Positions 15,340 through 31,554 of a DNA stretch of 64,000 bases are shown here, piece by piece (the first letter of the stretch is position 1; each line of letters opens with the position of its first letter). Under the pieces are notes generated by a model, which saw only the letters and a program-made list of their open reading frames with translations, did no database searches and was not told the origin of the DNA. The position numbers and the translations under genes were made by a program. Source of the stretch: Verrucomicrobiota bacterium (GTDB lineage Bacteria > Verrucomicrobiota > Verrucomicrobiia > Opitutales > Coraliomargaritaceae); contig JBCBZJ010000010.1 of assembly GCA_039815375.1 (NCBI GenBank), positions 39,588 through 103,587 on the forward strand, written 5' to 3'.

Positions 15340-17666
15340 TCTTGCGGGTAGAATAGAATTCTATCGTGAACAAGCAGTGTTAAATCCAACTTCCCATCGC
15401 CCGTAAACTCCTCAATTATAATCTGTCTAGGCTCGAGCTTCGCACCAGTGCGCCCTCGGTAGTGCATGTTTTGCTCAAAGACCTGCCAAAACATCCGACT
15501 ACTCCACCCTTCCTCGCCATGCGACAGGATGTCGACCACATGCTGGCTTCCATCGACAACAGCTAGCTCGAGCTTTCCATCACCGTCGAAATCTTCACCC
15601 ACAACATGGCTATAATGAATGTCTTCCAAGTCTGTCTCATAGGTTTGCCGGACAATCCATGAGCGCACCTTATCACGGCCACTGAAAAACCAGAAGCGGT
15701 CCTCGCCTGCAAAGATATAAGCTGGCTCGATTTTTTCGTTTCGTCCCGGAATCACCCTCCAATCAATCAAGTCGATTTGGCCAACATCAATCGCTTTTTC
15801 GTAGCGAAAGACACCGTCTTCATTACGTTTCAAGAACTGCATCTCACCATCTTCTCCAACATAGAGTGTGACGCCGGTTAAGTTCGGCCCCTCGCTCATG
15901 GGAATGACTGCATGAACAACATCTTTGCCTCGGCGCGCATTGAACTGATCCACCATTTCAAGCTGTCCGTCGGAAAACCTAAAAGCTCTGGCGAAACCCT
16001 GCAATGCCGCGACAAGCTCATTAGTCTGATCGGCATCAACGTCAAAAATCGATATCTGCGCTGGCTCAACACCTTTCAAGAGGCTCTCCCGTATACTGGA
16101 CTTGTTTGCAACAGAAATGAGATCAAAGCCATTATCAGAGTCAGGAGCATACAAAACCGGTGCCTCCCTTGGAATAAAGAGCATAAGACCGGGTCTGGTT
16201 CCGCCAAAAATATCGACGACCTTGAGTGCCCCGGGCTTCCGCCGGACGCCATCGATTGGAGTTTCAAAAAGCAAATCCCATGATGATAAAGGATCTTCTC
16301 GAACAGATGGAGCCGCTAGAATGAGCTGATAACCACCTTTTTCGTTTTCATAGACCAAGACGAGCTCGTCGAGTCCATCACCATCCATATCATATGCTTG
16401 AGAACAAATTGGACTTCCGGCAACGACCTTCAGCTGCTTCGGAAATGATAAACGCCCGCTTCCATCAAGCCGACTTAGACCGATCGTCTTTTCTTCCTCA
16501 CTGATGACAATCAATGCCTCCTCAGCACCTTCAAAAAAACGACCCATACTAAGAGACGAAATGAGCGAGAAGGACGGGAAAGCATTCGAGAACTGATAGC
16601 GACCATCCTTCTTGGAAAAAAGTAAGAGCTCCGCTTCAGCAGGATTAGCGACAACCAAATCGACCTCATCATCACGATTGACATCGCCAAAGGCATAGCT
16701 CGCCGACTCGCGAACTTTTTGGAAGATGGGATAGATTTCAGGGGCACCTTGGAGAACCGCAGGCACGTTTCGATCCGCATCGGACTCCTCTAAGGATATA
16801 AACTCAAGCGTGCCACTTCTGGAATCGACGACCGTAAGCGTTCCTACCTCCTTGGCAGAATCAGGCAGTGGTTTAACAATTCGAGCCGGCCGTTCCATCA
16901 CATGTCGGCTTTCTGGCCCAAAAGCCCCACTCGGGAGTTGTTCTCTCATCGCAAGAACCTGTTTACCATCCGTGCTCAAATAGAGCAAATCAAGCAACCC
17001 GTCTCCGGTCGCATCCGTAATCACTAAATTGAATGGATTTTCTCCTGTGATATAGAGGACTTCAGGTTCGCCCAGGCCCTCCTCCCCGTCCTGCGAAAAA
17101 ATCCGAATTGCATCGGCTGACACAACCACCAACTCATCCAAGCCATCACCGTCCAAATCAGAAACATTCAAAGTATTGGTCCAACCAAGAGCTTCGAATC
17201 CATCAAACTCACGAACCTCAATCCAATCTCCGCCTTCCGCCTGGTAGCGAACCGTAAGTGGAGCTTCGCGCGCACTATACGCAATATCGACCAAACCATC
17301 TCCATTGAGGTCTCCGACACCTAAATCGAACATGGGAAAGCCAACCGTGATCGACTTGTTCTCGAAGCGAGCATCTTCCAGAACTGGGTCCCAGCGATTG
17401 CGGTTCACGGTTTTCTTGCTGCTTCCGGAATCTTCACCTTCTGGCAATTGATAGAGCAGTTCCACGCGTGCGGCATCGTTATTGATCAAGACAAGATCCC
17501 GTAAACCATCATTGTCGAGGTCCGTTGCAGAAAGCGCACGGGTCGACCAATCCATTTTGAAGACTTCAGGTTCACCAAAGCCGTAGGTCAAAGCGCTTTG
17601 GACCTCTTTGCCATTGAGCATAAGTGGCGCTGCGGCCAGAACAAATAATCGTAAACTCCGGATCAT
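15336..17666 (-). CDS. FG-GAP/VCBS repeat (beta-propeller) exported protein
   Basis: Repeated DxDGDGxxDL Ca-binding motifs; signal-like N-terminus. Confidence 0.85.
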   Translation of the reverse strand: MIRSLRLFVLAAAPLMLNGKEVQSALTYGFGEPEVFKMDWSTRALSATDLDNDGLRDLVLINNDAARVELLYQLPEGEDSGSSKKTVNRNRWDPVLEDARFENKSITVGFPMFDLGVGDLNGDGLVDIAYSAREAPLTVRYQAEGGDWIEVREFDGFEALGWTNTLNVSDLDGDGLDELVVVSADAIRIFSQDGEEGLGEPEVLYITGENPFNLVITDATGDGLLDLLYLSTDGKQVLAMREQLPSGAFGPESRHVMERPARIVKPLPDSAKEVGTLTVVDSRSGTLEFISLEESDADRNVPAVLQGAPEIYPIFQKVRESASYAFGDVNRDDEVDLVVANPAEAELLLFSKKDGRYQFSNAFPSFSLISSLSMGRFFEGAEEALIVISEEEKTIGLSRLDGSGRLSFPKQLKVVAGSPICSQAYDMDGDGLDELVLVYENEKGGYQLILAAPSVREDPLSSWDLLFETPIDGVRRKPGALKVVDIFGGTRPGLMLFIPREAPVLYAPDSDNGFDLISVANKSSIRESLLKGVEPAQISIFDVDADQTNELVAALQGFARAFRFSDGQLEMVDQFNARRGKDVVHAVIPMSEGPNLTGVTLYVGEDGEMQFLKRNEDGVFRYEKAIDVGQIDLIDWRVIPGRNEKIEPAYIFAGEDRFWFFSGRDKVRSWIVRQTYETDLEDIHYSHVVGEDFDGDGKLELAVVDGSQHVVDILSHGEEGWSSRMFWQVFEQNMHYRGRTGAKLEPRQIIIEEFTGDGKLDLTLLVHDRILFYPQE

Positions 17667-19441
17667 TGGGAAACCTCTTTCCTTAGCATAATGGACCGAG
17701 TGTAGAAACCATCCGGCGCCTCGCTTGTTTCTGTTATAAAATGCCAGTCCAATTGCAGATCGGACGGTATCTTGTTTGGATCAAAGGCAAGACCAGTCTG
17801 TGCATACCGGCTCGCATCAACCATCGACGAAAGCAGCGGAAGGATGATCGCTCCAAAGTCGTAGTAGGATCGGGCGACTGCATCGGGCCGTTCAATTCGC
17901 TCAAAAAGAGCCTCTATCTCAGGTAATTGCCAAAAACCCGAATCCTGGGTCTGCATCGCGGTTAACACCTGTTGAACTAATCCTACTCGCCCAATACTGA
18001 AAATGAAATGACCGCGCGTGACAACAAAGCTGACATCCATTACAGGTGCGTCGGGCACACTGGGGTCTTCTGCTCCCGGAATCGTGTGTATCGTTTCACC
18101 TTCATACTCCAAGGTCCTAATTTGCGCACGGGCTCCAGGCATCATGTCTTTCAAAATCTCTACAGCATCAGAAAGTGCCTGCGAATCCTTGATTGAAAAA
18201 ACGAATAACTGCTCGGGCTCGATCATGCTCGAAGCACTCTGAGAATCCCCAGGAAGGAGAGAGAGGGTAACCATCTCGGGGTCGAAGTTATCTAGAATTG
18301 CTGCGCGCATATCCAGACCGCTCTGATTCTTGAAATTCTGGAGATGAATGTCCAGAAGCGGCATCGCACCTGGACTTGCTGTTGATAAAATAAACTCGAG
18401 GCTATCGAGCATTGCGCCCGGGTCAAAACGCGTCACAGCACTGGAAAAGATTTTTTCCGGAACGTAGGGTGCCTTCGGCAATTCACCGTCCGCATAAGCC
18501 ATCAACTTCATGAGGCCCGCCTTTTCTCTGTAAACGACCGAATTGTAGAACATCAGCCCGTTATCGACTAGGTCGAATTCGAAGCTTAGAGCCTGCAGCT
18601 CCTCAAGCGCAAGTGCCGTGTTGAAGCCCTGTGCGCTTACACCGAACATGGCAAGGCTTTGAACGGCCTTTTGCTGGAGCGCTTGATTAAGTGGCGGCAT
18701 CAGGGATTCAAAATTAAGATAGATTGAAAAGTCCCCTCGTCCCGATTCTTCGCGCGCACGTTGATAAGCAGAATTTGAGGCAAGCGAATCATCACTGCCA
18801 ACCTTGATTGCCTCAACAATTGTGCGCATCCGGTCTTCCGGTGTCGCCAAAATGAAAACACCGTCGACGAGAGCATAACCGTCTTCCACATAAGTTTTCT
18901 CACCGTCGAAGGTCTCATCAAAGTAAAGCGTCTCGCCCATGAAAGTCTCTTCTATCATTTCGTGTTCAATGAGCGGGTTAAATTTCTCCTGGGCTTTGGC
19001 ATTCCGCTCAAACTGAACTTGCATAAGCTCGTTCAAGCGCTCTTCGCTGGAACTAAATTCGGCAAGAATCGCAATATCAGGATTGTCGTCCTGCTTCAAA
19101 ATGAGCTCGGGCATATTGTAGATCGCCAGCGAGAATTGGCCCGGCAACAGTTCAAACAGATCCTCCCAAGTCAGGCCAAAATCATTTTTCATGACATCTG
19201 TAAATCCCGGTTCGCCATCCGCCGAGGTAGATTTGATAATCGGCTCGAAGAAGGCCAAGAGCGAATCATCTGCAAGGATTTCTGCAATCGGGTGATCCTG
19301 CCAGGATTCCCGAATTTCGGAAATATCTCTGAGAGTCAAAACCATGTCTGCCTCAGTTTCAATCAATTCAGCAAACGGCGTCGCAGTGAGATTCAGCGTC
19401 AGGCTGAAAAATAGGAAAGAAGTAAATAGCGTTCTAGTCAT
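17663..19441 (-). CDS. Exported hypothetical protein (possibly DUF3352-like)
   Basis: 592-aa acidic ORF with signal peptide; overlaps the next gene by 4 nt. Confidence 0.65.
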   Translation of the reverse strand: MTRTLFTSFLFFSLTLNLTATPFAELIETEADMVLTLRDISEIRESWQDHPIAEILADDSLLAFFEPIIKSTSADGEPGFTDVMKNDFGLTWEDLFELLPGQFSLAIYNMPELILKQDDNPDIAILAEFSSSEERLNELMQVQFERNAKAQEKFNPLIEHEMIEETFMGETLYFDETFDGEKTYVEDGYALVDGVFILATPEDRMRTIVEAIKVGSDDSLASNSAYQRAREESGRGDFSIYLNFESLMPPLNQALQQKAVQSLAMFGVSAQGFNTALALEELQALSFEFDLVDNGLMFYNSVVYREKAGLMKLMAYADGELPKAPYVPEKIFSSAVTRFDPGAMLDSLEFILSTASPGAMPLLDIHLQNFKNQSGLDMRAAILDNFDPEMVTLSLLPGDSQSASSMIEPEQLFVFSIKDSQALSDAVEILKDMMPGARAQIRTLEYEGETIHTIPGAEDPSVPDAPVMDVSFVVTRGHFIFSIGRVGLVQQVLTAMQTQDSGFWQLPEIEALFERIERPDAVARSYYDFGAIILPLLSSMVDASRYAQTGLAFDPNKIPSDLQLDWHFITETSEAPDGFYTRSIMLRKEVSQ

Positions 19442-20527: not shown

Positions 20528-21262
20528 CTAGGACTGCGGCATTTCGAAGTAAAAACTAAGCACACCCGGGTTCACCAGAATCGAATCAATCCGGACAATA
20601 GAAACAGTTTCTCCCCCGATTCGATTTTCAATCTCGTGCGCAAAAGGATAGCCTTTTACATCCCTGTAGTCTCGATAAATGGTCTGGAACTCGGCAACGC
20701 CCTCTTCATTCAATTGATCTACTTGCAACACATGCGAGTTGCGAACATCAAGAAAGTAGCGGCTTAATACGCTTTCTGCTTCAGTAATTTCCAAAACATA
20801 ACTTTCGCGCCCACCAACCCATGAATGCCCACTCAGCGTAATTCTGTTCTCAGGCTTCTCTAGGTGGCGGCATAAAGGGCCTTCAAATCTCGCCTCACGC
20901 TTAATCGCTTTGAGCTGATCTCCGGAGAGCGATTCGACGAACGTTTCCTCACCGTTACTGGTCTGAAGCCAACCATCCTCGCCATTGTAGCCTGTTACGA
21001 AAGTCACTTCTCCTTTTTCTAATCGGTAGCGAATCGAAGAAGGCCTTTTTTTACGGACAAGGAAAGGATACTCTATCCCATCCTGAATCTGGACCCCTTG
21101 GAAGGTAACTGCGGTCAATTTGTTGGCCTCGCGTAAATCTCCATAAGTGTCCGTATAACGCTTTAGAATCTTTTGAATGATGAATGCATCACTACTGTCC
21201 TGGGCACAAAGCTGTATGCCGCAGAAAACAAAGAGACAGGCTGTCAGAAATAGACGAAACAC
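20528..21262 (-). CDS. Exported protein, outer-membrane lipoprotein-sorting (LolA-like fold) family
   Basis: Signal peptide; GYNGEDGW, YRDYRDVKGYPF and terminal FEMP patterns. Confidence 0.6.
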   Translation of the reverse strand: MFRLFLTACLFVFCGIQLCAQDSSDAFIIQKILKRYTDTYGDLREANKLTAVTFQGVQIQDGIEYPFLVRKKRPSSIRYRLEKGEVTFVTGYNGEDGWLQTSNGEETFVESLSGDQLKAIKREARFEGPLCRHLEKPENRITLSGHSWVGGRESYVLEITEAESVLSRYFLDVRNSHVLQVDQLNEEGVAEFQTIYRDYRDVKGYPFAHEIENRIGGETVSIVRIDSILVNPGVLSFYFEMPQS

Positions 21263-21352: not shown

Positions 21353-22456
21353 TCATTCGACCTCTAGGATTAGCCCCTTAAGCAAATTGCTCTCAGGCAA
21401 ATGGAGCATAGAGGGAAAATCAAAGGGCTGCCCCGTGCGTGCAAAAACTCTTGCTTCACGACCAGCACATGCGGCTGCATCAGCCACCAAGCGCTCAAAG
21501 GACTGACCGGAGATTTTGTTGTCACGGCAGTATGTCGCAAGCAATCCACCAGACGCACAGGTAATCAGGGCTTTTCGGTGAAGCTCTTCAACAGACCCTC
21601 GATCCGCAAAAAAACATGACGGTGGATCCAGGATGATCCCATCCAGAGTGCCTGCATCACAGCCACTAATATATTTCAAGGCGTCGCTTGTCACAGTTTC
21701 AATCGGGCACCTGTTCTGCTGCGCATTTGCCCCAATTGCTTTGACGTAATTCTCCTCAACATCCAGCGCAACAACCCGCTCCGCCCCTGCGCGTGCCGCC
21801 TGAAGAGCAAAAGCTCCAGAGTGCGAAAATGCATCGAGAACGGTACGCCCCTCGCAGAGACTGCCCACCAATGCATGTTGTTCACGCTGATCCAAAAAGA
21901 ACGCGGGCTTATCTGTATTCAGCAAATCGATACGGTATTCGATATCATCGATCTCTATCCATCGCCCTCTGAGACCCTGTCCACTGGCAGTTCTCGGATC
22001 TTCGATTGAATCGATGACGATTTCGGTTACAGACAAATTGTCCCGGATAACTTCGGTGATTAAGTCAATATGTTGTCTTGTCGTATTTGTTTCCAGTGTC
22101 ACCCGGGCGACGTCATTAAACAAATCGACAATCAAACCAGGCAAATAATCCGCGTCCGAGCTGACGAGGCGCTGGCAGCTCTCTTCAGCCCTCTTATGCA
22201 TCGCCTCGACGATCGCAGAAGCAATGTATGCCTCGTCAAAAGCGATATCCTCGGCTAGTGAGTAGCGTCGCCACGCAGCAACAGGGTCTTGGCGGTCAAA
22301 AATTCCACAACCGAGAAAGTATCCCGTTGAATCAATCAAAGCGACAGATTCTCCGTCTGACAAGTCAGCCGAAATCTCTGCAAGTTGTTTCAGGTCAACC
22401 CAAGGGTGACCTCTGACACGACTGCAACGCTCAATCCGTATAATTCTCAGGGCCAT
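21353..22456 (-). CDS. RlmI-like SAM-dependent methyltransferase
   Basis: N-terminal GHPWV, FFLDQRE, VLDAFSHSGAF, ILDPP, C-terminal PESNLLKG. Confidence 0.8.
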   Translation of the reverse strand: MALRIIRIERCSRVRGHPWVDLKQLAEISADLSDGESVALIDSTGYFLGCGIFDRQDPVAAWRRYSLAEDIAFDEAYIASAIVEAMHKRAEESCQRLVSSDADYLPGLIVDLFNDVARVTLETNTTRQHIDLITEVIRDNLSVTEIVIDSIEDPRTASGQGLRGRWIEIDDIEYRIDLLNTDKPAFFLDQREQHALVGSLCEGRTVLDAFSHSGAFALQAARAGAERVVALDVEENYVKAIGANAQQNRCPIETVTSDALKYISGCDAGTLDGIILDPPSCFFADRGSVEELHRKALITCASGGLLATYCRDNKISGQSFERLVADAAACAGREARVFARTGQPFDFPSMLHLPESNLLKGLILEVE

Positions 22457-22466
22457 GGCCCCACAG

Positions 22467-23132
22467 TTAATCGTCGTCCGTAACTGTCCAGTTTAACCCG
22501 CCTTTGTTTTTAATAATACCCTTGTCCAGAGCAAATCGCACCAAACCGGCCTCATCGCTTATATTAAGCTTTTTCATTGCATTGTGTCTATGACGACGGA
22601 CCGTGAATGCGCTGATATCCAGGCGTTCTGCGATCTCATCCTTATCCTGACCCATTACCACTGCTCGTAAGACCTGAAATTCTCTGTCCGAGAGAATTTT
22701 ATAGTAGGCATCCGGATTCTCCCAAACCTCGAGAATCTTCTTTTGCACATTCGGCGAGTAATAGACGTGGCCGGCAGAGACTTCGTTGTAAGCCTCGAAA
22801 AGCACCTCGAGAGACATCTCACTCTTGTCCACGAAACCTAGCACACCACTGCACTGGATTTCGCGGACGGTATAATCATCACATTCACTGGACAAAGCCA
22901 GTATACGAATTTCAGGAACAGCCGAAAGCATTCGTTTGGCCAAGGCAAGACCGTCAAGCTTAGGCAACATTAGATCCAGAACGACAAAGTCAAACGGTTC
23001 GCCTGCAAAGGTTTTCCATGCTTGTTCGCCATCTCCAGCACCTTTTACGGCATCAAACTCAAACTCTCTCAGAGCGACACTCTCCAAAATTTCGCGAACA
23101 ATTTCTTCGTCTTCAACAATTAAAGCCTTCAT
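22467..23132 (-). CDS. LuxR/NarL-family response regulator (REC plus HTH)
   Basis: LIVEDE, VLDLMLPKLDG (phospho-Asp), LSDREFQVL...IAERLDISAFTVRRHRHNAMKKL. Confidence 0.92.
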   Translation of the reverse strand: MKALIVEDEEIVREILESVALREFEFDAVKGAGDGEQAWKTFAGEPFDFVVLDLMLPKLDGLALAKRMLSAVPEIRILALSSECDDYTVREIQCSGVLGFVDKSEMSLEVLFEAYNEVSAGHVYYSPNVQKKILEVWENPDAYYKILSDREFQVLRAVVMGQDKDEIAERLDISAFTVRRHRHNAMKKLNISDEAGLVRFALDKGIIKNKGGLNWTVTDDD

Positions 23133-23193
23133 TGAGCTTAAAAATTGATCACCAATTCACAAATCGCCAGAATTTTAATTGATTAAATTTCGT

Positions 23194-23209
23194 TAGTCCT
23201 AAAAGACTA
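23194..23209. promoter_or_regulatory. Palindromic operator TAGTC-CTAAAA-GACTA (site 1 of 3)
   Basis: Perfect 5-6-5 inverted repeat between the divergent response regulator and TonB receptor genes. Confidence 0.65.
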
Positions 23210-23220
23210 TCGTTCGGTTC

Positions 23221-26004
23221 ATGGTTTTAAGGAAGCAATCTGCTGTCACCCTACTCTTGAGTATTCTCTATTCTGGTATCGGAGCTGCGGATACACTACC
23301 GAGCGATGAACTGCCAATCATAGAACTGGAAGATTACATTGTGACCGGCTCAAGATTTTCTGCCGAAACATCAGCTATCCAGCTTCCTGTTGATTTCATC
23401 AGTGCGGATTCTCTGAGCTTATGGAGAGAAGAAACCGCAATTAGCGCTCTTCGTGCCGAAAGTTATAATATAGGTAGTGCAAATACGGAAAATGACAGTA
23501 ACGGCGGTGATGGTTCGGCCTCAGCCAACCTCCGTGGCCTCGGCACGCTTTCGACCTTGACCCTGATCAATGGGCGCCGTGCCGGTGGGAACAGCGCGTT
23601 CCTTTACAACCCTGGCGGTTTCTCTGACCTTAATCTGATCCCTGTCGCAGCAATTAGGGAAGTCGAGATTCTGACAGAAGGGACTTCCGTCGCCTATGGC
23701 TCCGATGCGGTCGCCGGAACCGTTAACATAATGCTGCACGACGACTACGTGGGCACTCGGATAGAGGCCGGCTACAGCGATACGACCGACGGAGACGCAT
23801 CGGAGAAGACTTTCTCCTTTCTCACAGGGCAGGAGTTAAACGAAAAAACGCATCTTGTCCTTCTCGGTAGCTGGTATCAGCGCAATGCGATTTACGCACG
23901 TGATCGCGACATCTCGGAAGATACAGACCGCCGGGCGCAAGGTGGGCAGAACCAAGGCAGCCCATTTTTCCCAGGCCGAATTTCGGTTTCGGGTGTAGAA
24001 TATGTTCTTCCGAGCAACATCGACGCACCAACAAACCTGGGGCAGTATGAATTGTTCGATCCCCTCAATGATCTGTATAATTTCAGCGAATTTGCTCCGG
24101 CCGTTCCAGAGGTTGAGCGAAAGAGCTTAATGGCCAACATCACTCATCAACTCACGGACAACCTCGAGCTTTGGGGTGAAGGACTTTTCACGACTTCCAC
24201 TTTCTACAATGCCTTGGCACCTGCACCGTGGACAGCCGCGCCTAACGGATTCGAAAATCCAGGTGTCTTTTCGAGCATTGTGAATACTCCCAGCCCACAT
24301 ATTCCAGCGGGCATTAACCCGGCTGATATAGAGCGCATCGCCTATCGCAGCTTTGAGCTCGGCAACCTTGCCCCGGAACAGGAAAAAACCGCCTTGCGCG
24401 GGCTAATCGGACTGCGCGGAACCTTTTCTGACTGGAACTGGGAAACAGCTCTCCTCTACTCCGAAGTCGAAACAGAATGGCAATGGAGTGGCGTTACCGA
24501 CGCACGCATCCTCTCCGATCTTATCGAAACCGGCGAGTTCAACCCCTTTGCCCAGGCATTCGCAACCGGAACGATTCCTTCTGGTCCACTGGCAGGCCAA
24601 ACTTATGACAATGCGGCTGCTCTAGAGCAAGCCGAGGCAGATCCGGTAGACCTTTTTAAGGAGCAGTTCTGGAGCTATGACATCTCTGCCAGCCGATCTT
24701 TTCTCGAACTTCCTGCAGGCGAGCTCGAAACAGCTTTCGGCTTCGAGTATCGCGACGAGAGCATCGAGGCTGATATTGACGAGATCTTTGTGAACAGCAA
24801 CAACCTTGGAGGACCTGTCCGAGAATCCTACGGCGGAGACCGTAAGGTTTACGCTGGCTTTCTTGAAAGCCTGATCCCCATTTACCGCAAAGGTTCGCAA
24901 TCTCTGGACCTGAATGCTTCCATCCGCTACGAGGAGTATAGAGACAGCTCTGATGACAGCTCGGTTACAGGAAACCAATACAACGCATTCGTCTACAAGC
25001 TCGGCACGAACTTCAAGGCATCCGAAGCGCTAAAGTTCCGGCTATCTTACGGGACAGCTTTCCGAGCTCCAACCCTAACGGAGAGCTATGGAGGTAGCGT
25101 AATCGCAAATCCGATCTACAATGATCCTCTGGGCTTCACGGCGGACTCGGCTCGGATAAACACATTAATCAGCAGTAATTCGGATCTCGATCCGGAAGAA
25201 TCAACAACTGTCAACGCAGGATTCGTCTTTGCTCCTGATCCTGCCAAGGGATGGCGCCTTGAGATCGAATATTACAAAATCAAAACACAGGATGGTATCG
25301 TTAACGGAGCTCAATTCCTGGTAGACCAGAATGCAGCAGGGCAGCCGAACGGCGTCACACCGGGAACATTGGCTCCCACTGCACCAAATGCCGGACAAAT
25401 CATTCGGAACCCTGTGACAGGCCAACTTCTCGTGGTATTCTCCGAGTTCTTCAACGTAGCTGAAATTGAAACCGACGGCATCGATTACACATTAAGCTAT
25501 TTCCAACCCACGAGTGAAGGCAACTGGGAAGCCTCGATCAGGATAAGCCAGGTTCTATCCTACGATGTAACGGCGGCCCCGGGGGCAGCGACACAATCCT
25601 ACCTCGGGGACTTCATTGACCCGGCGGCTCCGGGTGGAAACATCGTCGGGCGCGGCTCGATTCCGCGCTATAAAGGCTACGCCCGCTTCGTCTGGAATCA
25701 TCGCAACCTGACCTTGGGCGCCACTTATAACTATATTCACTCCCTCGATGATAACACTGCATTCACCACAACGGGGCAACAGCGCAAAATCGACTCATGG
25801 CAAAGCCTCGATCTAGTGGCCCGTTACACTTGGCCGGAGAGTGCCCTGGATTGGCTCGATGGAGTCACACTTACCTTAAGTGCTGAAAATGTGACCGACG
25901 AAGCACCGCCTTTTGCTGCGGGCGCCTTTGCTGACGGCTACGACCGCTCGCTCTATAGCCTGGAAGGTCGAAGAATGGGGATCACACTCGCCAAAGATTT
26001 CTAA
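23221..26004 (+). CDS. TonB-dependent receptor
   Basis: Signal peptide, TonB box-like YIVTGSR, plug NLRGLG..TLTLINGRR, YGSDAVAGTVNI, C-terminal Phe. Confidence 0.93.
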   Translation: MVLRKQSAVTLLLSILYSGIGAADTLPSDELPIIELEDYIVTGSRFSAETSAIQLPVDFISADSLSLWREETAISALRAESYNIGSANTENDSNGGDGSASANLRGLGTLSTLTLINGRRAGGNSAFLYNPGGFSDLNLIPVAAIREVEILTEGTSVAYGSDAVAGTVNIMLHDDYVGTRIEAGYSDTTDGDASEKTFSFLTGQELNEKTHLVLLGSWYQRNAIYARDRDISEDTDRRAQGGQNQGSPFFPGRISVSGVEYVLPSNIDAPTNLGQYELFDPLNDLYNFSEFAPAVPEVERKSLMANITHQLTDNLELWGEGLFTTSTFYNALAPAPWTAAPNGFENPGVFSSIVNTPSPHIPAGINPADIERIAYRSFELGNLAPEQEKTALRGLIGLRGTFSDWNWETALLYSEVETEWQWSGVTDARILSDLIETGEFNPFAQAFATGTIPSGPLAGQTYDNAAALEQAEADPVDLFKEQFWSYDISASRSFLELPAGELETAFGFEYRDESIEADIDEIFVNSNNLGGPVRESYGGDRKVYAGFLESLIPIYRKGSQSLDLNASIRYEEYRDSSDDSSVTGNQYNAFVYKLGTNFKASEALKFRLSYGTAFRAPTLTESYGGSVIANPIYNDPLGFTADSARINTLISSNSDLDPEESTTVNAGFVFAPDPAKGWRLEIEYYKIKTQDGIVNGAQFLVDQNAAGQPNGVTPGTLAPTAPNAGQIIRNPVTGQLLVVFSEFFNVAEIETDGIDYTLSYFQPTSEGNWEASIRISQVLSYDVTAAPGAATQSYLGDFIDPAAPGGNIVGRGSIPRYKGYARFVWNHRNLTLGATYNYIHSLDDNTAFTTTGQQRKIDSWQSLDLVARYTWPESALDWLDGVTLTLSAENVTDEAPPFAAGAFADGYDRSLYSLEGRRMGITLAKDF

Positions 26005-26014
26005 TCAATATTGC

Positions 26015-26440
26015 CTATACTGGCAACTGAAGGCGCATGCGATTATCGTGGTTAAGCTCTGGGAATAGCTTTCTCAAACGACGGAGGAAGAGCACTGCTC
26101 CTCCAGCCGTATAATCAGGCTTATGGAGGCCCATCTTATCCCAAAGCTGCGAAATTTTCCTTAATTGAAGATTCTCAGAAACAGTCCTTTTAGAGTAAAG
26201 ATGGTTTCCTTGGCGAGGGGTTGCATAGGTGTATGCCTGCCCATCGAGATTAAACTGCACCTTAAATCGGCAGTCCATACCATGGTCGCGGAGCTCGTAA
26301 ATGCGCATCCAGACCCATTCATCGTTTGCGTCCCGAAGCGGGCAGATGGAGAAATCTCCATAGCCAATCTGAATATTGATCTCGCTTATCATTGACATCA
26401 CGAAAGCTACGTTAGCATTTCGGATTTTCAACATGCCCAA
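26015..26440 (-). CDS. Hypothetical protein (true start possibly ATG at 26398 or 26392)
   Basis: Fills the gap downstream of YcaO; no recognised motif; palindrome site 2 lies immediately upstream. Confidence 0.55.
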   Translation of the reverse strand: MGMLKIRNANVAFVMSMISEINIQIGYGDFSICPLRDANDEWVWMRIYELRDHGMDCRFKVQFNLDGQAYTYATPRQGNHLYSKRTVSENLQLRKISQLWDKMGLHKPDYTAGGAVLFLRRLRKLFPELNHDNRMRLQLPV

Positions 26441-26441
26441 A

Positions 26442-26457
26442 TGGTCCTTTTAGACTA
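26442..26457. promoter_or_regulatory. Palindromic operator TGGTC-CTTTTA-GACTA (site 2 of 3)
   Basis: Reverse complement TAGTCTAAAAGGACCA closely matches site 1. Confidence 0.6.
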
Positions 26458-26488
26458 TGTGGCAGCAAAGTAGCATGGACGGACTCTT

Positions 26489-27373
26489 TCACCAAAAGAA
26501 GTAGTCAGCCGCATTACTCAGATAGTCTCTACTCGGTGGTTTAATGATCGTCCGCCAGACGTAGGCGAATTTATCCCACGGGCCACGAACGGCACAATCG
26601 AACAGCAGGTTTAACTCACAGATCGCAGCCTTCGAGTGTTTTTCAAGCCTTTGGTCGAAACAGGCGCAACCCTCATCGCTGGAAAAATACAAAATTCTAC
26701 TTTCAAAAACTCCCAATTCCCCATCGCTGTCGAGGTCTTTACGAATCGCACGAAGAAGGGCCTCGGTTCGCTCGAATTCGATTCTGCTACGCCAAATCGC
26801 TCCTTCGAGGTCCTTTGCAGCCCCAAAGGCATACACACGCCCCTGCTCCGAATCTCTCCAGATCAATACGACGTCATGCTTCGAAAAAGGATTCTCGATC
26901 TGAATCCCTTCTAAGCGATCCGGCAATCCACTCATTTTCCGGTGCCCCAAAAGGCCCTCCCACCAGGACATCAGGCAATGCCGTTCAATCGACTCCGAAA
27001 AAGCTGCTCGCCGAGCCTGCCGGGCAAAGAGACCGGGAAAGGCAGCAAAGCCGTTCGAGCCTCCGTCGATTTGAATGCCACCCGGATTTTCCTCCATACG
27101 TTCTCGGCAATCGTAAACCACCCAACGTTCGATCGCCTCAGAGACCGCCATATGGCAAGCGATTTGAACCGACTCATGCGTGCCTGCCCCATCCGGCACC
27201 GGCGTTTTGGTGTGGGTGCGGACCTTCTTCGTAACCAGCTCATCTATCAGATAAGCACTGGCTTGATAGACTTCGCGCTCGGCCAACCGATACCTCCCAT
27301 ATTCGAGAGTCTTCAGGGGGCCTCCACCCTCCGCCGTAATGTTTGCGTAACGAATAGGTGCGAGGCTAATCAT
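26489..27373 (-). CDS. Short stand-alone YcaO-like protein
   Basis: YcaO ATP-binding signature in order: GAGT..MAVSEAIER, GSNGFAA, SESIERH; ATG at 27373 gives 294 aa. Confidence 0.75.
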   Translation of the reverse strand: MISLAPIRYANITAEGGGPLKTLEYGRYRLAEREVYQASAYLIDELVTKKVRTHTKTPVPDGAGTHESVQIACHMAVSEAIERWVVYDCRERMEENPGGIQIDGGSNGFAAFPGLFARQARRAAFSESIERHCLMSWWEGLLGHRKMSGLPDRLEGIQIENPFSKHDVVLIWRDSEQGRVYAFGAAKDLEGAIWRSRIEFERTEALLRAIRKDLDSDGELGVFESRILYFSSDEGCACFDQRLEKHSKAAICELNLLFDCAVRGPWDKFAYVWRTIIKPPSRDYLSNAADYFFW

Positions 27374-27374
27374 G

Positions 27375-27424
27375 AAAAAAGTGCCCAACCGCCGGGAGGA
27401 TTATATCGACCGGCGATTGGGCAC
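27375..27424 (-). terminator. Intrinsic terminator-like hairpin between peptide gene and YcaO
   Basis: Minus strand GTGCCCAATCGCCGG-N14-CCGGCGGTTGGGCAC followed by TTTTTT, ending just before the YcaO ATG. Confidence 0.7.
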
Positions 27425-27431
27425 AGAGTAA

Positions 27432-27569
27432 TTAAACGGTCATCACAGATGGGAAAGCCGATTTCGACATTTCTGCTTTTTCTCTCGTACCGTCTACACA
27501 GGCGTCAGTGCGCATACTCAACGTGGCAAAGCCAGCATTAAGTAGTAGGGTGCTGATTAGCTTTTTCAT
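27432..27569 (-). CDS. Unannotated 45-aa peptide, candidate RiPP/signal precursor: MKKLISTLLLNAGFATLSMRTDACVDGTREKAEMSKSAFPSVMTV
   Basis: Hand translation ATG(27569) to TAA(27432); shorter than any ORF in the supplied track; signal-like N-terminus; own promoter and downstream hairpin. Confidence 0.7.
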   Translation of the reverse strand: MKKLISTLLLNAGFATLSMRTDACVDGTREKAEMSKSAFPSVMTV

Positions 27570-27611
27570 TTGATTGGTAGTATCAATTAAGTCTCTACTC
27601 GAGACTATGTT

Positions 27612-27640
27612 GTTATACGTCGGGGATCTTTTTCTGTCAA
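27612..27640 (-). promoter_or_regulatory. Near-consensus sigma70 promoter for the peptide gene
   Basis: Minus strand TTGACA (27640-27635), 17 bp spacer, TATAAC (27617-27612). Confidence 0.72.
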
Positions 27641-27650
27641 TTAAGGCAAC

Positions 27651-27666
27651 TGGTCTGAGAAGACTA
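27651..27666. promoter_or_regulatory. Palindromic operator TGGTC-TGAGAA-GACTA (site 3 of 3)
   Basis: Same 5-6-5 motif, 10 bp upstream of the peptide -35 box and just upstream of the likely kinase start. Confidence 0.62.
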
Positions 27667-27681
27667 AGTCCTTACGGCGTT

Positions 27682-30600
27682 ATGCATAGAGAAGAGACCG
27701 TATGTGTTTTGCAGGAAATTGTAATCATACTTTCCAGACTAGTTTTGGCATTCTCGCTTTTGGCTGGCTTCCCAAACAAAGCTGATCCTTCCGACATCGC
27801 AGAACCCTTAGTTAGAAAGTTCTCTCCAATTCAATATGGGGGCGGGACTTCATCGAGAGCCGTGACAGAGGATAAAAGTGGTAACCTCTTCTTTGGGAAC
27901 GAAAAAGGTGTTCTCAAATACGACGGAGCGGCTTGGTCTATTCTGCCTTCTACGGGTGATTCTGTTTTCACGCAAGCCGTTATGGTCGATCACATGAATC
28001 GGATTTGGGCTATGGGCAACGAATCCATCGGCTATTACGAAGCCGGAAAAATGGGCGACTATGTCTACGTTGATATGCTTCCCAGCCTTAAAACCTATTT
28101 CGAGGTAGAGCAACTTGGGCCATTTTGGGAGCTTTTCGCAATGGAGGAAACAATCTACCTAGCTACGAGCTACGCTTTTTTAAGTTGGGATGGTTCCATC
28201 TGGAGCAAGTTTAGTTTCAATACAGAGCGTCGCATTCTACCTTCTGATTCGAAGGGCAAGTTCTACATTCATTCAAGAGGTGAAGGAATATTCCGCTTCG
28301 ACAATGAAGAATGGAAGAAAGTTGCAGGTCCAAATTCACTCTACTGCCGCGGAATTGATGCCATAGTCGAAAAGGAAGATGATGTTTTAACTCTCTTCAC
28401 ATTTTTTCAAGGGACATTGGAAATCGATCTAAAAACTCAAGAAGTAAGAAAGGTCCAAACACCATTTGAAGAGTCCGCACAGGGGAAAATGGTAACAGCA
28501 ATCAATGGAACTGATAGCTCCAGTGTTCTCGCAGGTGTAAGCACGGTAGGTCTCTATTTCATAGACAACCAATATCAACTTAGCGGCTTCGCGGCAGATC
28601 CCAAAAATAACATGTATGACAATTATGCCGAGACTAGTTCGGGCTACTGGGCCACCGCATCGGAAGAACTTTTACAGATTCCCTTCGGAACAGCATTAAG
28701 TCATTATGAAACTGGCGATCGGGTTGATGCAATAACCCGTTTTTCAGATAAAATCGTCTTCGCTGGTCGCTACTATCTCTTTGAGCTGGACCCGAGTAAT
28801 GCGCCGGAAAAGTCTACAGTCCAGCGGAAGCTCGAATTTACAGGCTCTTATACGCTGACAGAAGCAGACAAGCATCTAATCACTGGAGGAACCGAGGACT
28901 GCCTAAAGATAAATTCTGATGGAAGCATTGACCGGATCGAAAGTCCACGTCAGATCCTGTCTTCTTCGCCCAGTCGCCTCTACCCTGAAACAGTCTACGC
29001 TGGTGATTTGCCTTTTGTAAGCCGAATCCGAAAGCAGGCAGATGGTGAATGGCAACTCGTCGATTCCTCGGCAGAGCCGGTAGGCTTCGTTCTGGCACTC
29101 GAAGAGCTACCCGATGGCAGTGTCTTGGCGACGACACAATCCGGACCAGTAAAACGCATATTCTGGCCTGAAAACGGGAGCGGCCCTCCGCGGGTTGAAC
29201 CATTAGGCAAAGAGCAGGGACTCCCGGAAGAATTCGCCTGGTCCTACGTTCTTCATTCTCAGGGACATTATATATTGGTTACCGATCAAGGCGCTTTTCG
29301 ATATGCTTTTGAATTGGAGCGTTTTGAATATGACGATGTTCTCGGAAGCGACCTGGGCCTCAATACTTTTGATCTCGAATACACTGGGCTTGCGAGTGGG
29401 GACGGTTGGCTCCTCTGGCTGCCTGAGAATGAAGTATCCGGCCAACGGCTCGGAGCACTGTCTATCTCAACTGATGGAAGTCTCAACTGGGAACCATGGT
29501 ACATCCCGGCATTGAGTGAGCTTGGGAATGTCGAATCGCTTTACCACGAGGTTTACCAAGGCACTGAGCTGCTCTGGATCGGTGGTCTCGACGCGCTGCA
29601 CCGATACGATCTGGATGCAATGCCCGAAACGCCACCCCGAGACGCCAAAGTAACATCGGTACGGGAGCTAAACTCCGGTGCACTCTTTCAGGGGCCGGCA
29701 GGCAGTGCCCAGCTCGAAATGAACCTGAAGTTTCCCCAAGAGCGTTTGGCATTCAGAGTAACCTCACCACCCAGCCGGACAGAACTGGTTGGTTTCCAGA
29801 CACGATTGCTTGGATTCGAGAAAAACTGGTCCGAAACTACCGAACTCCAGTCCCGGGAATACACCCGAATCAGTGAGGGTAACTACACTTTTGAAGTTAG
29901 AGCAATCGACGAATTCTTGAGAGCAGGTCCAATTGCCAGTTACTCGTTTACCATACTTCCTCCCTGGTATCGCACTGTCTACGCCTATTTATGCTATGTG
30001 CTGATGCTGTTCTTATTCATTCTGGTTGCAGCCAGAATCAGGACCAACCGCCTGCATCGAAAAAATCTAGAGCTGGAGGCTACAGTCGCCGATCGCACCG
30101 AAGAGCTCCAACGCAAAAACGAGCAGCTCCGCCAAGCAAATACTGTAAAGCAAGATTTCCTTGCCAGTATGAGCCACGAAATCCGTAATCCGCTCAATGG
30201 CATTCTCGGTGTCGCACAGCTCCTCCGCCAAGAACAAGTAGGCGGCGCGACCCGAATCTCACACCTCAACGCCTGCGCAACACATCTCCACCAGCTTCTC
30301 GGTCAGGTGCTCGATTTTTCCAGTTTAGAGTCGGGCAAACTTGAAACCCGTCCTAAACCTTTTGATGTAAACGAGCTTATCGAAGAAGCCGTCGGCATGT
30401 ATAGTGCCCTTGCCGAGAAAAAGGCGCTCCAAATTTCCAAAGACTTCAAAGGCAGTGACAATCTCTGGATCGGCGACCCGGTTCTCCTGCGGCAAGTCCT
30501 CATCAACCTGATTTCGAACGCCATTAAATACACGCCATCCGGAGAGGTCCGCGTCCAATTAGAATACGCAGAGGCCAGCGCTAAAGTTGAGGCACGCTTT

Positions 30601-31554
30601 ATCATTGAAGATACCGGACCGGGCATACCTGAAGATAAACGAGAATATATCTTCAAAGATTTTACCCGTCTCAATAAGGCTGGAGAAAGCGAAATCGCCG
30701 GAACAGGCCTGGGGCTTGCCATCGCCTCACAGATGTCGGAGCTGATGCGTGGAAGTTTGACGCTCGACCCAAGCTATCAAGAGGGTGCCCGCTTCGTGCT
30801 GGCACTCCCCTTCGAAGGTGGGGCGAAGATTGTCGAGAAAACCGCCGAAACATTTGCCACGACTCAGCCACTTACCGGTAAGCGTGTGCTGGTCGCAGAT
30901 GATATGGAATTCAACCGCTACATTAGCCGCGAACTGGTGCAGAAACTTGGTGCCGAGGTCGATGAGGCTGAAGATGGTCAAGAAGCCTTAGAAGCGCTAA
31001 ACCGCGATTTCTACGACATTGCGCTCTTGGATATCAACATGCCCAAAATGAATGGAAATCAGGTTGTTCAAGCATTTCTTCGCAAACCGAGCGGAAGGCC
31101 CACATTGTTTGTAGCTCTGACTGCCCACGTCACCGCCTCAATGGAGAAGGCTGCGTTTCAAGCGGGCTTCTCTCACTTTATCGAAAAGCCGCTGGACCCC
31201 GAAGTGCTAATGCAAATCGCTCAAGCCCAGCCCCTGCGTGATAAAAAGGCAGCAGCAGACTTGTTGAGCTATTTGTCGGGAAGCGATTCGAAAGCACAAT
31301 CGAAACTAAAGGATCGCTATCTTCAATCCATGCGCGAACAGATCAAAATGCTGAGTCTGGCACTGGATCATGAAGACCGCTCGGAAGCATCTAAAATCCT
31401 CCATAAGCTTCGCGGTCTCGCAAATCTGAAGCGCAAGAAAGACATGATCGAGATAATGGAGCAACTCGCTGAAACACTTCATTCAGACGAGGACATCCTG
31501 ATCGCGAAAAAGCAATTCGCGAAACTTGGTGAAATCTTCGATTCAGGGAGCTAG
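27682..31554 (+). CDS. Unorthodox hybrid sensor kinase (periplasmic beta-propeller, Y_Y_Y, TM, HisKA, HATPase, REC, Hpt)
   Basis: GVLKYDG propeller repeats, YTRISEGNYTFEVRA, ILPPWYRT, FLASMSHEIRNPLN, LLDINMP, LHKLRG; start uncertain because the track start 27574 overlaps the peptide promoter. Confidence 0.9.
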   Translation: MHREETVCVLQEIVIILSRLVLAFSLLAGFPNKADPSDIAEPLVRKFSPIQYGGGTSSRAVTEDKSGNLFFGNEKGVLKYDGAAWSILPSTGDSVFTQAVMVDHMNRIWAMGNESIGYYEAGKMGDYVYVDMLPSLKTYFEVEQLGPFWELFAMEETIYLATSYAFLSWDGSIWSKFSFNTERRILPSDSKGKFYIHSRGEGIFRFDNEEWKKVAGPNSLYCRGIDAIVEKEDDVLTLFTFFQGTLEIDLKTQEVRKVQTPFEESAQGKMVTAINGTDSSSVLAGVSTVGLYFIDNQYQLSGFAADPKNNMYDNYAETSSGYWATASEELLQIPFGTALSHYETGDRVDAITRFSDKIVFAGRYYLFELDPSNAPEKSTVQRKLEFTGSYTLTEADKHLITGGTEDCLKINSDGSIDRIESPRQILSSSPSRLYPETVYAGDLPFVSRIRKQADGEWQLVDSSAEPVGFVLALEELPDGSVLATTQSGPVKRIFWPENGSGPPRVEPLGKEQGLPEEFAWSYVLHSQGHYILVTDQGAFRYAFELERFEYDDVLGSDLGLNTFDLEYTGLASGDGWLLWLPENEVSGQRLGALSISTDGSLNWEPWYIPALSELGNVESLYHEVYQGTELLWIGGLDALHRYDLDAMPETPPRDAKVTSVRELNSGALFQGPAGSAQLEMNLKFPQERLAFRVTSPPSRTELVGFQTRLLGFEKNWSETTELQSREYTRISEGNYTFEVRAIDEFLRAGPIASYSFTILPPWYRTVYAYLCYVLMLFLFILVAARIRTNRLHRKNLELEATVADRTEELQRKNEQLRQANTVKQDFLASMSHEIRNPLNGILGVAQLLRQEQVGGATRISHLNACATHLHQLLGQVLDFSSLESGKLETRPKPFDVNELIEEAVGMYSALAEKKALQISKDFKGSDNLWIGDPVLLRQVLINLISNAIKYTPSGEVRVQLEYAEASAKVEARFIIEDTGPGIPEDKREYIFKDFTRLNKAGESEIAGTGLGLAIASQMSELMRGSLTLDPSYQEGARFVLALPFEGGAKIVEKTAETFATTQPLTGKRVLVADDMEFNRYISRELVQKLGAEVDEAEDGQEALEALNRDFYDIALLDINMPKMNGNQVVQAFLRKPSGRPTLFVALTAHVTASMEKAAFQAGFSHFIEKPLDPEVLMQIAQAQPLRDKKAAADLLSYLSGSDSKAQSKLKDRYLQSMREQIKMLSLALDHEDRSEASKILHKLRGLANLKRKKDMIEIMEQLAETLHSDEDILIAKKQFAKLGEIFDSGS

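Follow-up and report, generated by a model that had tools for sequence, protein, structure and literature searches.

A compact YcaO-like enzyme is encoded at positions 26489..27373, on the reverse strand, of a 64,000-nucleotide (nt) stretch of contig JBCBZJ010000010.1 from a Verrucomicrobiota bacterium of the family Coraliomargaritaceae (hereafter, the window). On the same strand and 58 nt upstream lies the gene of a 45-amino-acid (aa) precursor peptide (27432..27569), from which a hybrid sensor kinase gene diverges; a response regulator, a TonB-dependent receptor and a small gene named orfX are located on the other side. The initial annotation presented the enzyme as a minimal, stand-alone YcaO. 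Minimal it is, but it does not stand alone, since it has its own precursor gene and a conserved context of kinase, regulator and receptor. The data given below make it reasonably likely that the compact YcaO serves as the maturase in a peptide autoinducer circuit.

The compact YcaO and its precursor peptide

The YcaO gene was delimited from its open reading frame (ORF), its motifs, an AlphaFold model and a homolog alignment; its product has 294 aa from the ATG and ends in DYFFW. The ordered ExxER, SNGxAA and ExxER motifs reported for it earlier are present as SEAIER (78-83; S78-E79-x-x-E82-R83), SNGFAA (106-111) and ESIER (127-131; E127-x-x-E130-R131), and the fold and the residue conservation show them to be more than chance. 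A fourth element beyond that list, R195...E199, follows. In YcaO enzymes, ATP and Mg are bound by Ser, Glu and Arg from three helices and by the SNG loop. All 120 of 120 homologs keep S78, E79, E82, R83, E127, E130, R131 and E199 unchanged and have Ser or Thr at position 106. The ATP/Mg residues are kept in 144-150 of 150 distant representatives, and they align, with weak E-values, with the matching stretches of MjYcaO and TruD.

Of the checks proposed in the initial annotation, the profile search gave a mixed answer. The Pfam YcaO profile (PF02624) does match the protein (E 2.1e-4), but with 21.2 bits it falls under the gathering cut-off of 25.7, and a Pfam-profile search of the whole genome fails to recover it. 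The same profile is matched at E<=0.01 by 40 of 41 aligned family members (best 3.3e-9). The window protein is a divergent member of the YcaO superfamily that the curated Pfam cut-off overlooks, so profile-based mining can miss the family. Searching NCBIfam returned TIGR03604 alone, far under its cut-off, and a PDB sequence search with the family profile yielded weak matches (E 0.48-1.4). A single-sequence scan of the genome contigs gave 50 pattern matches, none of them confirmed, whereas an alignment query did recover loci.

Structure prediction, the other check, recovers the YcaO fold. The AlphaFold model has a predicted local distance difference test score (pLDDT) of 90.9 and a predicted template modelling score (pTM) of 0.88. 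Its top Foldseek matches are YcaOs (E 3.8e-6), the Methanopyrus thioamide YcaO being ranked first and MusD also being listed. The Z values in VIA-align were 16.9 for McbD (root-mean-square deviation 3.9, 260 residues aligned), 15.2 for MkYcaO, 14.8 for LynD, 13.7 for MjYcaO and 11.6 for EcYcaO, the next, non-YcaO, match being at 6.0. Of 48,161 chains, only five reach Z>=8, and all five are YcaO structures.

The protein belongs to a family with 131 close homologs, mostly of 280-330 aa, the named ones coming from Opitutales/Verrucomicrobiota. The median length is 300 aa among the 150 best representatives at 50% identity, and the short length is thus a trait of the family. At 50% identity the family comprises 739 clusters at E<=0.001 and 313 at E<=1e-30. 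The enzyme is present in 40 of 301 genomes of the order; in a phylum-wide search strong matches were confined to the order (22 genomes including the window's own), with one weak partial match outside. A search for longer or fused forms (574-2000 aa) found none, which is weak evidence. Two antisense ORFs, 26636-26914 and 26942-27541, gave no Pfam match and were treated as shadow frames. The ESM Atlas holds a look-alike compact YcaO cluster (283 aa, 137 members, score 0.94) that is commonest in Bdellovibrionota. A broken YcaO fragment with four TGA stops occurs in a 1.9-Mb genome (G153:C2:256171-256671). Five genomes (G223, G216, G287, G135 and G170) carry two YcaO cassettes each, and the two cores of G223 differ.

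It had also been stated that E1/ThiF-like, TfuA and flavin dehydrogenase genes are missing nearby. This holds for the large ORFs scanned at 15.3-38.2 kilobases (kb) of the window, among which 17663-19441 and 20528-21262 have no Pfam match. Across 80 loci, neither a dehydrogenase nor an E1 partner or recognition element (RRE) of peptides made on ribosomes and modified after translation (RiPPs) is conserved. TfuA has no match in the 99.9% complete genome, in a search whose positive control worked.

The precursor gene was recognised by a hidden Markov model (HMM) and by linkage. The peptide has a conserved, hydrophobic, signal-peptide-like leader and a variable C-terminal core (Pro40-Ser41...Thr44-Val45). 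The HMM, seeded from 15 hand-picked peptides of other genomes, matches upstream of YcaO in 96 of 110 loci, a number already attained in round one; some of these loci are redundant, two of the 14 misses are without upstream DNA, and several more carry a shorter variant by eye. Matches occur in 28 of the 301 genomes, and by coordinate comparison 31 of the 33 lie directly upstream of a YcaO match. NCBIfam holds no model for the precursor and gave a single match (E 0.083) in one of three peptides.

In a set of 76 precursors, from which the frameshifted locus L077 was excluded, the leader has a Gly in 72 and an Asp nine residues on in 68. Judged from the alignment, such conservation exceeds what a generic signal peptide would need. 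A Cys follows the leader in 64 of the 76, and 11 of the 12 Cys-free peptides are second copies of tandem pairs. CxxC or CxxxC cores are found in 35, and all five internally repeated precursors repeat a Cys motif. The window core has no Cys; it has Ser41 and Thr44 instead, and several relatives likewise have Ser/Thr.

A stem-loop followed by a U run lies between precursor and YcaO on the reverse strand (27381..27424; z -6.8, 0 of 200 shuffles). The gap contains a hairpin of z<-2.8 in all 13 loci L001-L013 and in 16 of 34 gaps tested overall, and the element is likely a partial terminator or transcript stabiliser. One Opitutaceae clade (L017, L019-L021, L025-L028, L031, L039, L040) carries two tandem precursors, the second of which keeps the leader, is mostly without core Cys and may be a decoy, an inhibitor or a second signal. 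Upstream of the YcaO gene in L074 (5761-5979) and L080 (5647-5979), divergent peptides missed by the HMM have repeated acidic/Pro-rich units with few or no Cys, possibly a different type of substrate.

A complex of YcaO, precursor, ATP and Mg was modelled alongside three controls. It scores 0.91 vs. 0.02 for the best of the three, a mark attained by 116 of 157 solved pairs and 2 of 215 mismatched pairs. The runs share at least 97% of contacts, and the partner pLDDT is 81. Core residues 34-45 lie within the modelled interface, where the closest pairs are formed between peptide residues 35-44 and the active-site region of the enzyme (59-63, 104-105, 201-209 and 222-223); R131, E199 and W294 are interface residues as well. 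The interface also takes in leader residues and the N-terminal region of YcaO, a contact which suggests how the enzyme manages without an RRE partner. As a prediction, the model supports binding between YcaO and the precursor. That the enzyme acts on the 45-aa peptide is highly probable.

As for the chemistry, the C-terminus holds a constant position: among 120 close homologs, 119 stop at the W294 column, and of the 146 representatives that have the anchoring Trp, 143 terminate 18-21 residues past R274. The structural alignments, which give ranges only, end at 294=396 (Pro396 of McbD) and 294=775 (LynD), whereas they stop at residue 287-288 for three thioamide-type YcaOs. According to PMC6395948, the general base in McbD is proposed to be its final residue, Pro396, through the free carboxylate, and a Ser/Thr at the beta-turn aids phosphate release. 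Because the C-terminus is fixed and aligns to the last residue of McbD and LynD, beyond where the alignments with thioamide YcaOs stop, azoline-like chemistry is favoured. The PxP terminus of azoline-forming YcaOs is indeed absent, as first pointed out; with Phe or Trp as the last residue in 135 of 150 representatives, this absence is less telling than was then held. Similarly, the view that the chemistry cannot be assigned stands in that it is not established, but goes too far in light of the C-terminal alignment. Since the cores bear Cys/Ser/Thr and TfuA is absent, an unoxidised azoline is the most likely product; we give an azoline, over any other product, a somewhat better than even chance.

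Sensor kinase, regulator and operator palindrome

The hybrid sensor kinase (27574..31554, forward strand, 1326 codons) diverges from the precursor gene and contains Y_Y_Y, HisKA, HATPase and receiver domains and a weak Hpt match; its true start is probably 27682 or later. An N-terminal hydrophobic segment is followed by a periplasmic propeller plus Y_Y_Y region and a transmembrane segment near residue 802, so that two hydrophobic segments flank the periplasmic region. Of the 66 loci with at least 1.5 kb of upstream DNA, 57 have a divergently oriented kinase sensor. Of the nine misses, three that were scanned also hold a hybrid kinase there; L052 does not. In Opitutaceae (L018, L021, L022, L024, L025, L027, L030, L046, L073 and others) YcaO is often followed by a hybrid kinase on its own strand, of PAS type in the four scanned, and a lone receiver protein lies downstream of YcaO in L014 and L023. 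These are possible extra parts of the phosphorelay.

Peptide and sensor may vary together. Two near-identical strains (loci L066 and L068) share 99-100% DNA identity over YcaO and the sensor-proximal kinase region and 91-94% over the rest of the kinase. Over the sensor, promoter and precursor they share 46-64%, and their cores differ. Peptide and sensor have been swapped together between these strains, as in agr. Another pair, L003 and L009, keeps both the sensor (97%) and the core. Across 19 disjoint pairs, core identity correlates with the sensor at rho 0.55 (p 0.014) vs. rho 0.39 (p 0.10) with the kinase.

The LuxR/NarL-type response regulator (22467..23132, reverse strand, 221 aa) was assigned by Pfam and by tblastn in relatives and consists of a receiver and a GerE helix-turn-helix domain. 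It has a tblastn match in 50 of the 80 loci, many of which are incomplete; one of the matches is the kinase's own receiver. The TonB-dependent receptor (23221..26004, forward strand, 927 aa; Pfam) is present in 14 of the 80 related loci, mostly in the window's family, and is a candidate importer of the peptide. The small gene orfX (26015..26434, reverse strand, about 130-139 aa) has no known family and is conserved in place in two relatives (L004 and G162) at 32-37% identity, which makes three genomes in all. It has no Pfam family, its best Atlas score is 0.79 and a protein search returns only itself. It is a candidate feedback regulator, peptide-binding protein or immunity protein. As an Rfam scan of 22000-28500 gave no match at E<=1, the gap after YcaO is occupied by a protein gene rather than by a known RNA. 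A scan for sigma-70 promoters and terminators showed no excess over shuffles.

A motif search of 13 precursor promoters of the window's family revealed a 6-4-6 palindrome, of which TRGTCY-N4-RGACYA is the strict form, about 100 nt before the precursor start, with an information content of 12.7-13.3 vs. 8.8-10.2 in shuffled sequences. In the window it lies in the divergent precursor/kinase promoter (27651..27666). A matrix trained on eight sites from other genomes locates a second copy 32 nt past the YcaO stop, ahead of orfX (26442..26457; same position in L004 and G162), and a third in the divergent promoter of the TonB receptor and regulator (23194..23209; conserved in G162). Across the 64-kb window the matrix ranks the second and third copies first and second, respectively, and the precursor site ninth. 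Three palindromes at one mismatch in the cassette are attained by 8 of 100 shuffles. The strict form has ten perfect sites in the genome, nine of them intergenic and the tenth being the precursor promoter; permuted palindromes are intergenic in 10 of 44 cases.

Other perfect sites lie 105-121 nt before operons for secreted proteins. Rhs-repeat toxins are encoded in two of these operons; in a third, the first gene has TSP3 repeats and sits at the end of a contig. The Rhs operons (G000:C2:60111-68700, L151; C50:18131-27800, L152, both in the window's own genome) are paralogs with a perfect operator 113-115 nt upstream of each. They encode a secreted protein of ~270 aa, a TSP3 or RCC1-like protein of ~800 aa and an Rhs toxin of 1700-1850 aa; one of them has DUF6883 and a downstream Imm27 gene. 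An operator also leads a block of three proteins without known family (G000:C10:17745-19350, L142). The site before the homolog of its first gene is kept in G282, making it the best-conserved unlinked regulon candidate. Opitutaceae clades have different palindromes, e.g., CTACCGGAATTCCGGTAG, mostly at -63 to -66, and each clade's palindrome type pairs with one type of regulator recognition helix. To judge from the sequences, this pairing fits operator binding by the LuxR-type regulator.

Partial and orphan loci were also found. In G178, a genome of the same genus, the regulator (76%), receptor (44%) and kinase (41%) are in the same place (G178:C1:72000-90000, L176); orfX, YcaO and precursor are absent, as is any operator in the 18 kb examined. 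The recognition helix is altered, and the genome has two loose operator sites vs. 11-17 in four cassette-bearing relatives. The locus may be listener-only or decayed. The window's own genome contains a second precursor (47 aa, C47:50758-50901) whose core is very like that of the window, divergent from another propeller kinase, truncated where the contig stops (G000:C47:50758-52578, L150). Phage-like ORFs directly follow this precursor, three of which were checked and gave no Pfam match. No second YcaO is present in the genome assembly; the orphan precursor may be served in trans, or its locus may have been split by an insertion. Listener-only and orphan loci would be expected of a signalling system.

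The proposed circuit and its alternatives

The peptide gene upstream of YcaO, the divergent kinase and the palindrome shared by the block and two Rhs operons suggest a modified peptide signal of the quorum-sensing kind, and the modified peptide is probably the signal for the neighbouring kinase. With the fold, the active-site residues, the gene linkage, the palindrome and the allele swap established, we infer the steps of chemistry, export, binding and regulation as follows. The N-terminal subdomain of YcaO is predicted to grip the hydrophobic leader, so that no E1 or RRE partner would be needed. Still in the cytoplasm, ATP/Mg would then activate a backbone amide, most likely at Pro40-Ser41, to give an oxazoline, or a thiazoline in relatives whose cores bear Cys. 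As general base, the free carboxylate of Trp294 would take the place of Pro396 of McbD, and the ring would stay unoxidised because there is no dehydrogenase. The leader may double as the export signal, the core being released beyond the inner membrane; where the TonB receptor exists, i.e., in the window's family, it may return the peptide to the periplasm. There the peptide would bind the periplasmic propeller of the kinase, which would phosphorylate the LuxR-type regulator. By binding TRGTCY-N4-RGACYA at the precursor, orfX and receptor promoters, the regulator would close a feedback loop. It would also control a small regulon that includes the two Rhs toxin operons, linking the circuit to secretion and competition.

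Several observations weigh against such a circuit. The complex model may have passed partly owing to its likeness to solved YcaO-peptide structures, and the modelling job, with its own alignments and ligands, was unlike the calibration set. The hydrophobic stretch of the leader is short in the window's family (about 10 residues), which makes Sec export uncertain, and the cassettes of the 80 loci share no conserved protease or exporter. Similar kinases also turn up at loci that lack YcaO or precursor (49 of 301 genomes match the sensor at E<=1e-40), so the kinase family is wider than the cassette. Whatever the system, divergence is quicker in sensor domains than in kinase cores. The all-pairs partial correlation between core and sensor is just 0.14, and L051 and L069 differ by 32-50% in their N-terminal sensor DNA while having almost identical cores. 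As regards the operator, the strict form that yields the ten perfect sites was tightened after the matches in the window genome were known. Counted in total, sites show no enrichment (25 vs. 23 random at a score of at least 14), nor does the looser pattern in four relatives (11-17 vs. 11-20 reversed controls). Among 11 other receptor promoters, just 3 reach a score of at least 10. In relatives, 13 of the 23 inspected sites are intergenic, and none has a homolog of the Rhs operons beside it. The match between helix and palindrome is confounded by ancestry.

Other explanations differ in what the enzyme makes or in what the peptide does. Within the same circuit, YcaO could close a five-residue (thio)lactone like that of autoinducing peptides (AIPs) or a macrocyclic imidate: the C-terminal carboxylate, or the amide past the fifth residue, would be activated as an acyl phosphate and trapped by the core Cys/Ser/Thr. 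Five residues is the ring size of agr peptides. One Opitutaceae clade places the nucleophile exactly five residues from the C-terminus in 10 of its 11 precursors, and the window's family does so in register in 10 of 13, Ser41 included; CxxxC cores, too, are units of five residues. However, Cys/Ser/Thr occupies position -5 in just 15 of 62 other precursors, follower lengths vary widely, and in the model residues 42-44 run along the 104-105 strand with Val45 absent from the closest pairs. From the parts of the literature available, AgrB is a thiolactone-making enzyme and MusD a YcaO that forms an acyl phosphate (PMC10885120), and ThiF-like enzymes make ATP-driven C-terminal thiolactones and imides beside agr-like kinases (PMC11256085). 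A literature search limited in the same way turned up no YcaO-made thiolactone. This ring closure seems rather unlikely; mass alone cannot separate it from the azoline, since both products lose 18 Da. An enzyme that thioamidates the peptide without TfuA, or that merely trims it as a MusD-like ATP-dependent peptidase, is improbable. It would agree with the Foldseek ranking, in which the Methanopyrus thioamide YcaO comes first and MusD appears too, with the lack of a conserved protease in the cassette, and with E. coli YcaO, which needs nothing but sulfide, Mg and ATP to thioamidate uL16 (PMC13063428, as far as its available text goes). Yet McbD and LynD give the best full-length alignment, last residue included, the C-terminus has the constant position that a catalytic carboxylate would predict, Cys/Ser/Thr cores are what azoline formation requires, and TfuA is not found in the 99.9% complete genome.

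The peptide might instead be an output: a bufferin-like exported metal-binding or stress peptide, with the two-component system answering another cue and the TonB receptor importing the peptide-metal complex. Signal-peptide-led, Cys-modified RiPP precursors are known in bufferins/oxazolins (PMC12452194, available portions), CxxC or CxxxC cores are frequent (35 of 76) and the operator is common to the TonB receptor. But the window core is devoid of Cys and several relatives have Ser/Thr; core and sensor are exchanged jointly, which a fixed external cue does not require; and the candidate regulon consists of Rhs operons and secreted proteins with no recognisable metal-handling genes. We consider this output role unlikely. 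Variable cores and a co-regulated TonB receptor would also fit the microcin-like uptake of a narrow antibacterial peptide that the kinase senses for self-induction or defence; the shared operator ties the cassette to the Rhs competition operons, and orfX is possibly an immunity protein. Against this stand the single enzyme, the one or two modifiable residues and the lack of a conserved exporter or immunity gene. Moreover, orfX is seen in just three genomes, and G178 retains receptor and kinase without it. An antibacterial role is very improbable.

Peptide pheromone circuits are a hallmark of Gram-positive bacteria, and peptide quorum sensing of this kind is rare in bacteria with an outer membrane. 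A literature search, in which subscription journals and supplements (e.g., the YcaO network data of PMC13063428) were barely covered, found no description of the compact YcaO family and no YcaO product described as a signal; the available parts of PMC7794033 and 10.64898/2026.01.08.698421 do not mention the family. There is a fair likelihood that the cassette is a peptide-pheromone circuit built on an undescribed minimal YcaO family. A more far-reaching proposal is a peptide quorum sensing of the Opitutales' own with strain dialects, in which a YcaO-made pheromone, possibly an AIP-like macro(thio)lactone, is re-imported via TonB, read by the propeller kinase and switches the Rhs operons on, some relatives being listener-only; this is tentative and on balance doubtful. 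The cassette can be tested in cultured Verrucomicrobia, since loci exist in Thalassobacterium, Cerasicoccus, Oleiharenicola and Horticoccus. If true, the autoinducer reading would tell what class of ligand the large Y_Y_Y propeller kinases of Opitutales respond to, and would supply an operator that predicts the regulon. A single partner-free YcaO of 294 aa with dozens of natural core variants would also be a useful minimal tool for installing azolines or rings in peptides.

Relation to known systems

A precursor with a conserved leader and a variable core lies beside the enzyme, as in RiPP systems generally. Among azoline-forming enzymes, McbD of microcin B17 and LynD/TruD of the cyanobactins share with the window YcaO the fold (Z 16.9 and 14.8), the ATP/Mg residues and the Ser/Thr at the SNG turn, and its last residue aligns to the C-terminus of McbD and LynD, which PMC6395948 proposes as catalytic in McbD. 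In contrast, it is ~100 residues shorter than McbD at 13-16% identity, has neither an E1/RRE partner nor a dehydrogenase, ends in an aromatic tail instead of PxP and faces one or two targets. Its fold and active site make it a YcaO, but it lacks the PxP end and the partners of classical azoline systems. The thioamide YcaOs (MkYcaO, MjYcaO, EcYcaO) and MusD are alike in fold and ATP site and can work without an E1 partner; they differ in that their alignments end before the C-terminal tail and that they act on proteins or azole-bearing cyanobactins, whereas the peptide here is signal-led and carries Cys/Ser.

Bufferins/oxazolins, RiPPs modified by oxidative enzymes that depend on multinuclear non-haem iron (MNIOs), resemble the cassette in a signal-peptide-like leader that perhaps also serves enzyme recognition and in core Cys motifs; according to the accessible part of PMC12452194 they differ in the enzyme, in copper binding and in requiring a partner protein. 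The window cassette, on the other hand, has a dedicated kinase and regulator and hypervariable cores. Enterofaecin and other ThiF-like RiPP clusters have in common with it a minimal ATP-dependent maturase, a short precursor, a kinase and a regulator, and a proposed role in quorum sensing; in the available text of PMC11256085 they are distinguished by ThiF adenylation chemistry, a Firmicutes origin and ABC exporters.

The closest parallels in organisation are agr of staphylococci (AgrD/AgrB/AgrC/AgrA) and ComQXPA of Bacillus; pherotype variation is known from such systems. As there, a small precursor and its single maturase share one locus with a response regulator and a membrane sensor kinase, and the locus seems to have a variable block across the peptide and the sensor domain and to regulate itself. 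The cassette has no maturase of the AgrB or ComQ family, its sole enzyme being YcaO. AgrB carries out thiolactone chemistry (PMC10885120, in its available part). The host here is diderm, and a soluble ATP-dependent YcaO takes the place of a membrane protease or prenyltransferase. The kinase is a hybrid with a large periplasmic propeller, the regulator is of the LuxR/NarL rather than the LytTR type, some lineages add a TonB receptor and the maturase lies outside the variable block. Because maturase, kinase type and regulator type differ, the cassette is not a member of agr or ComQXPA.

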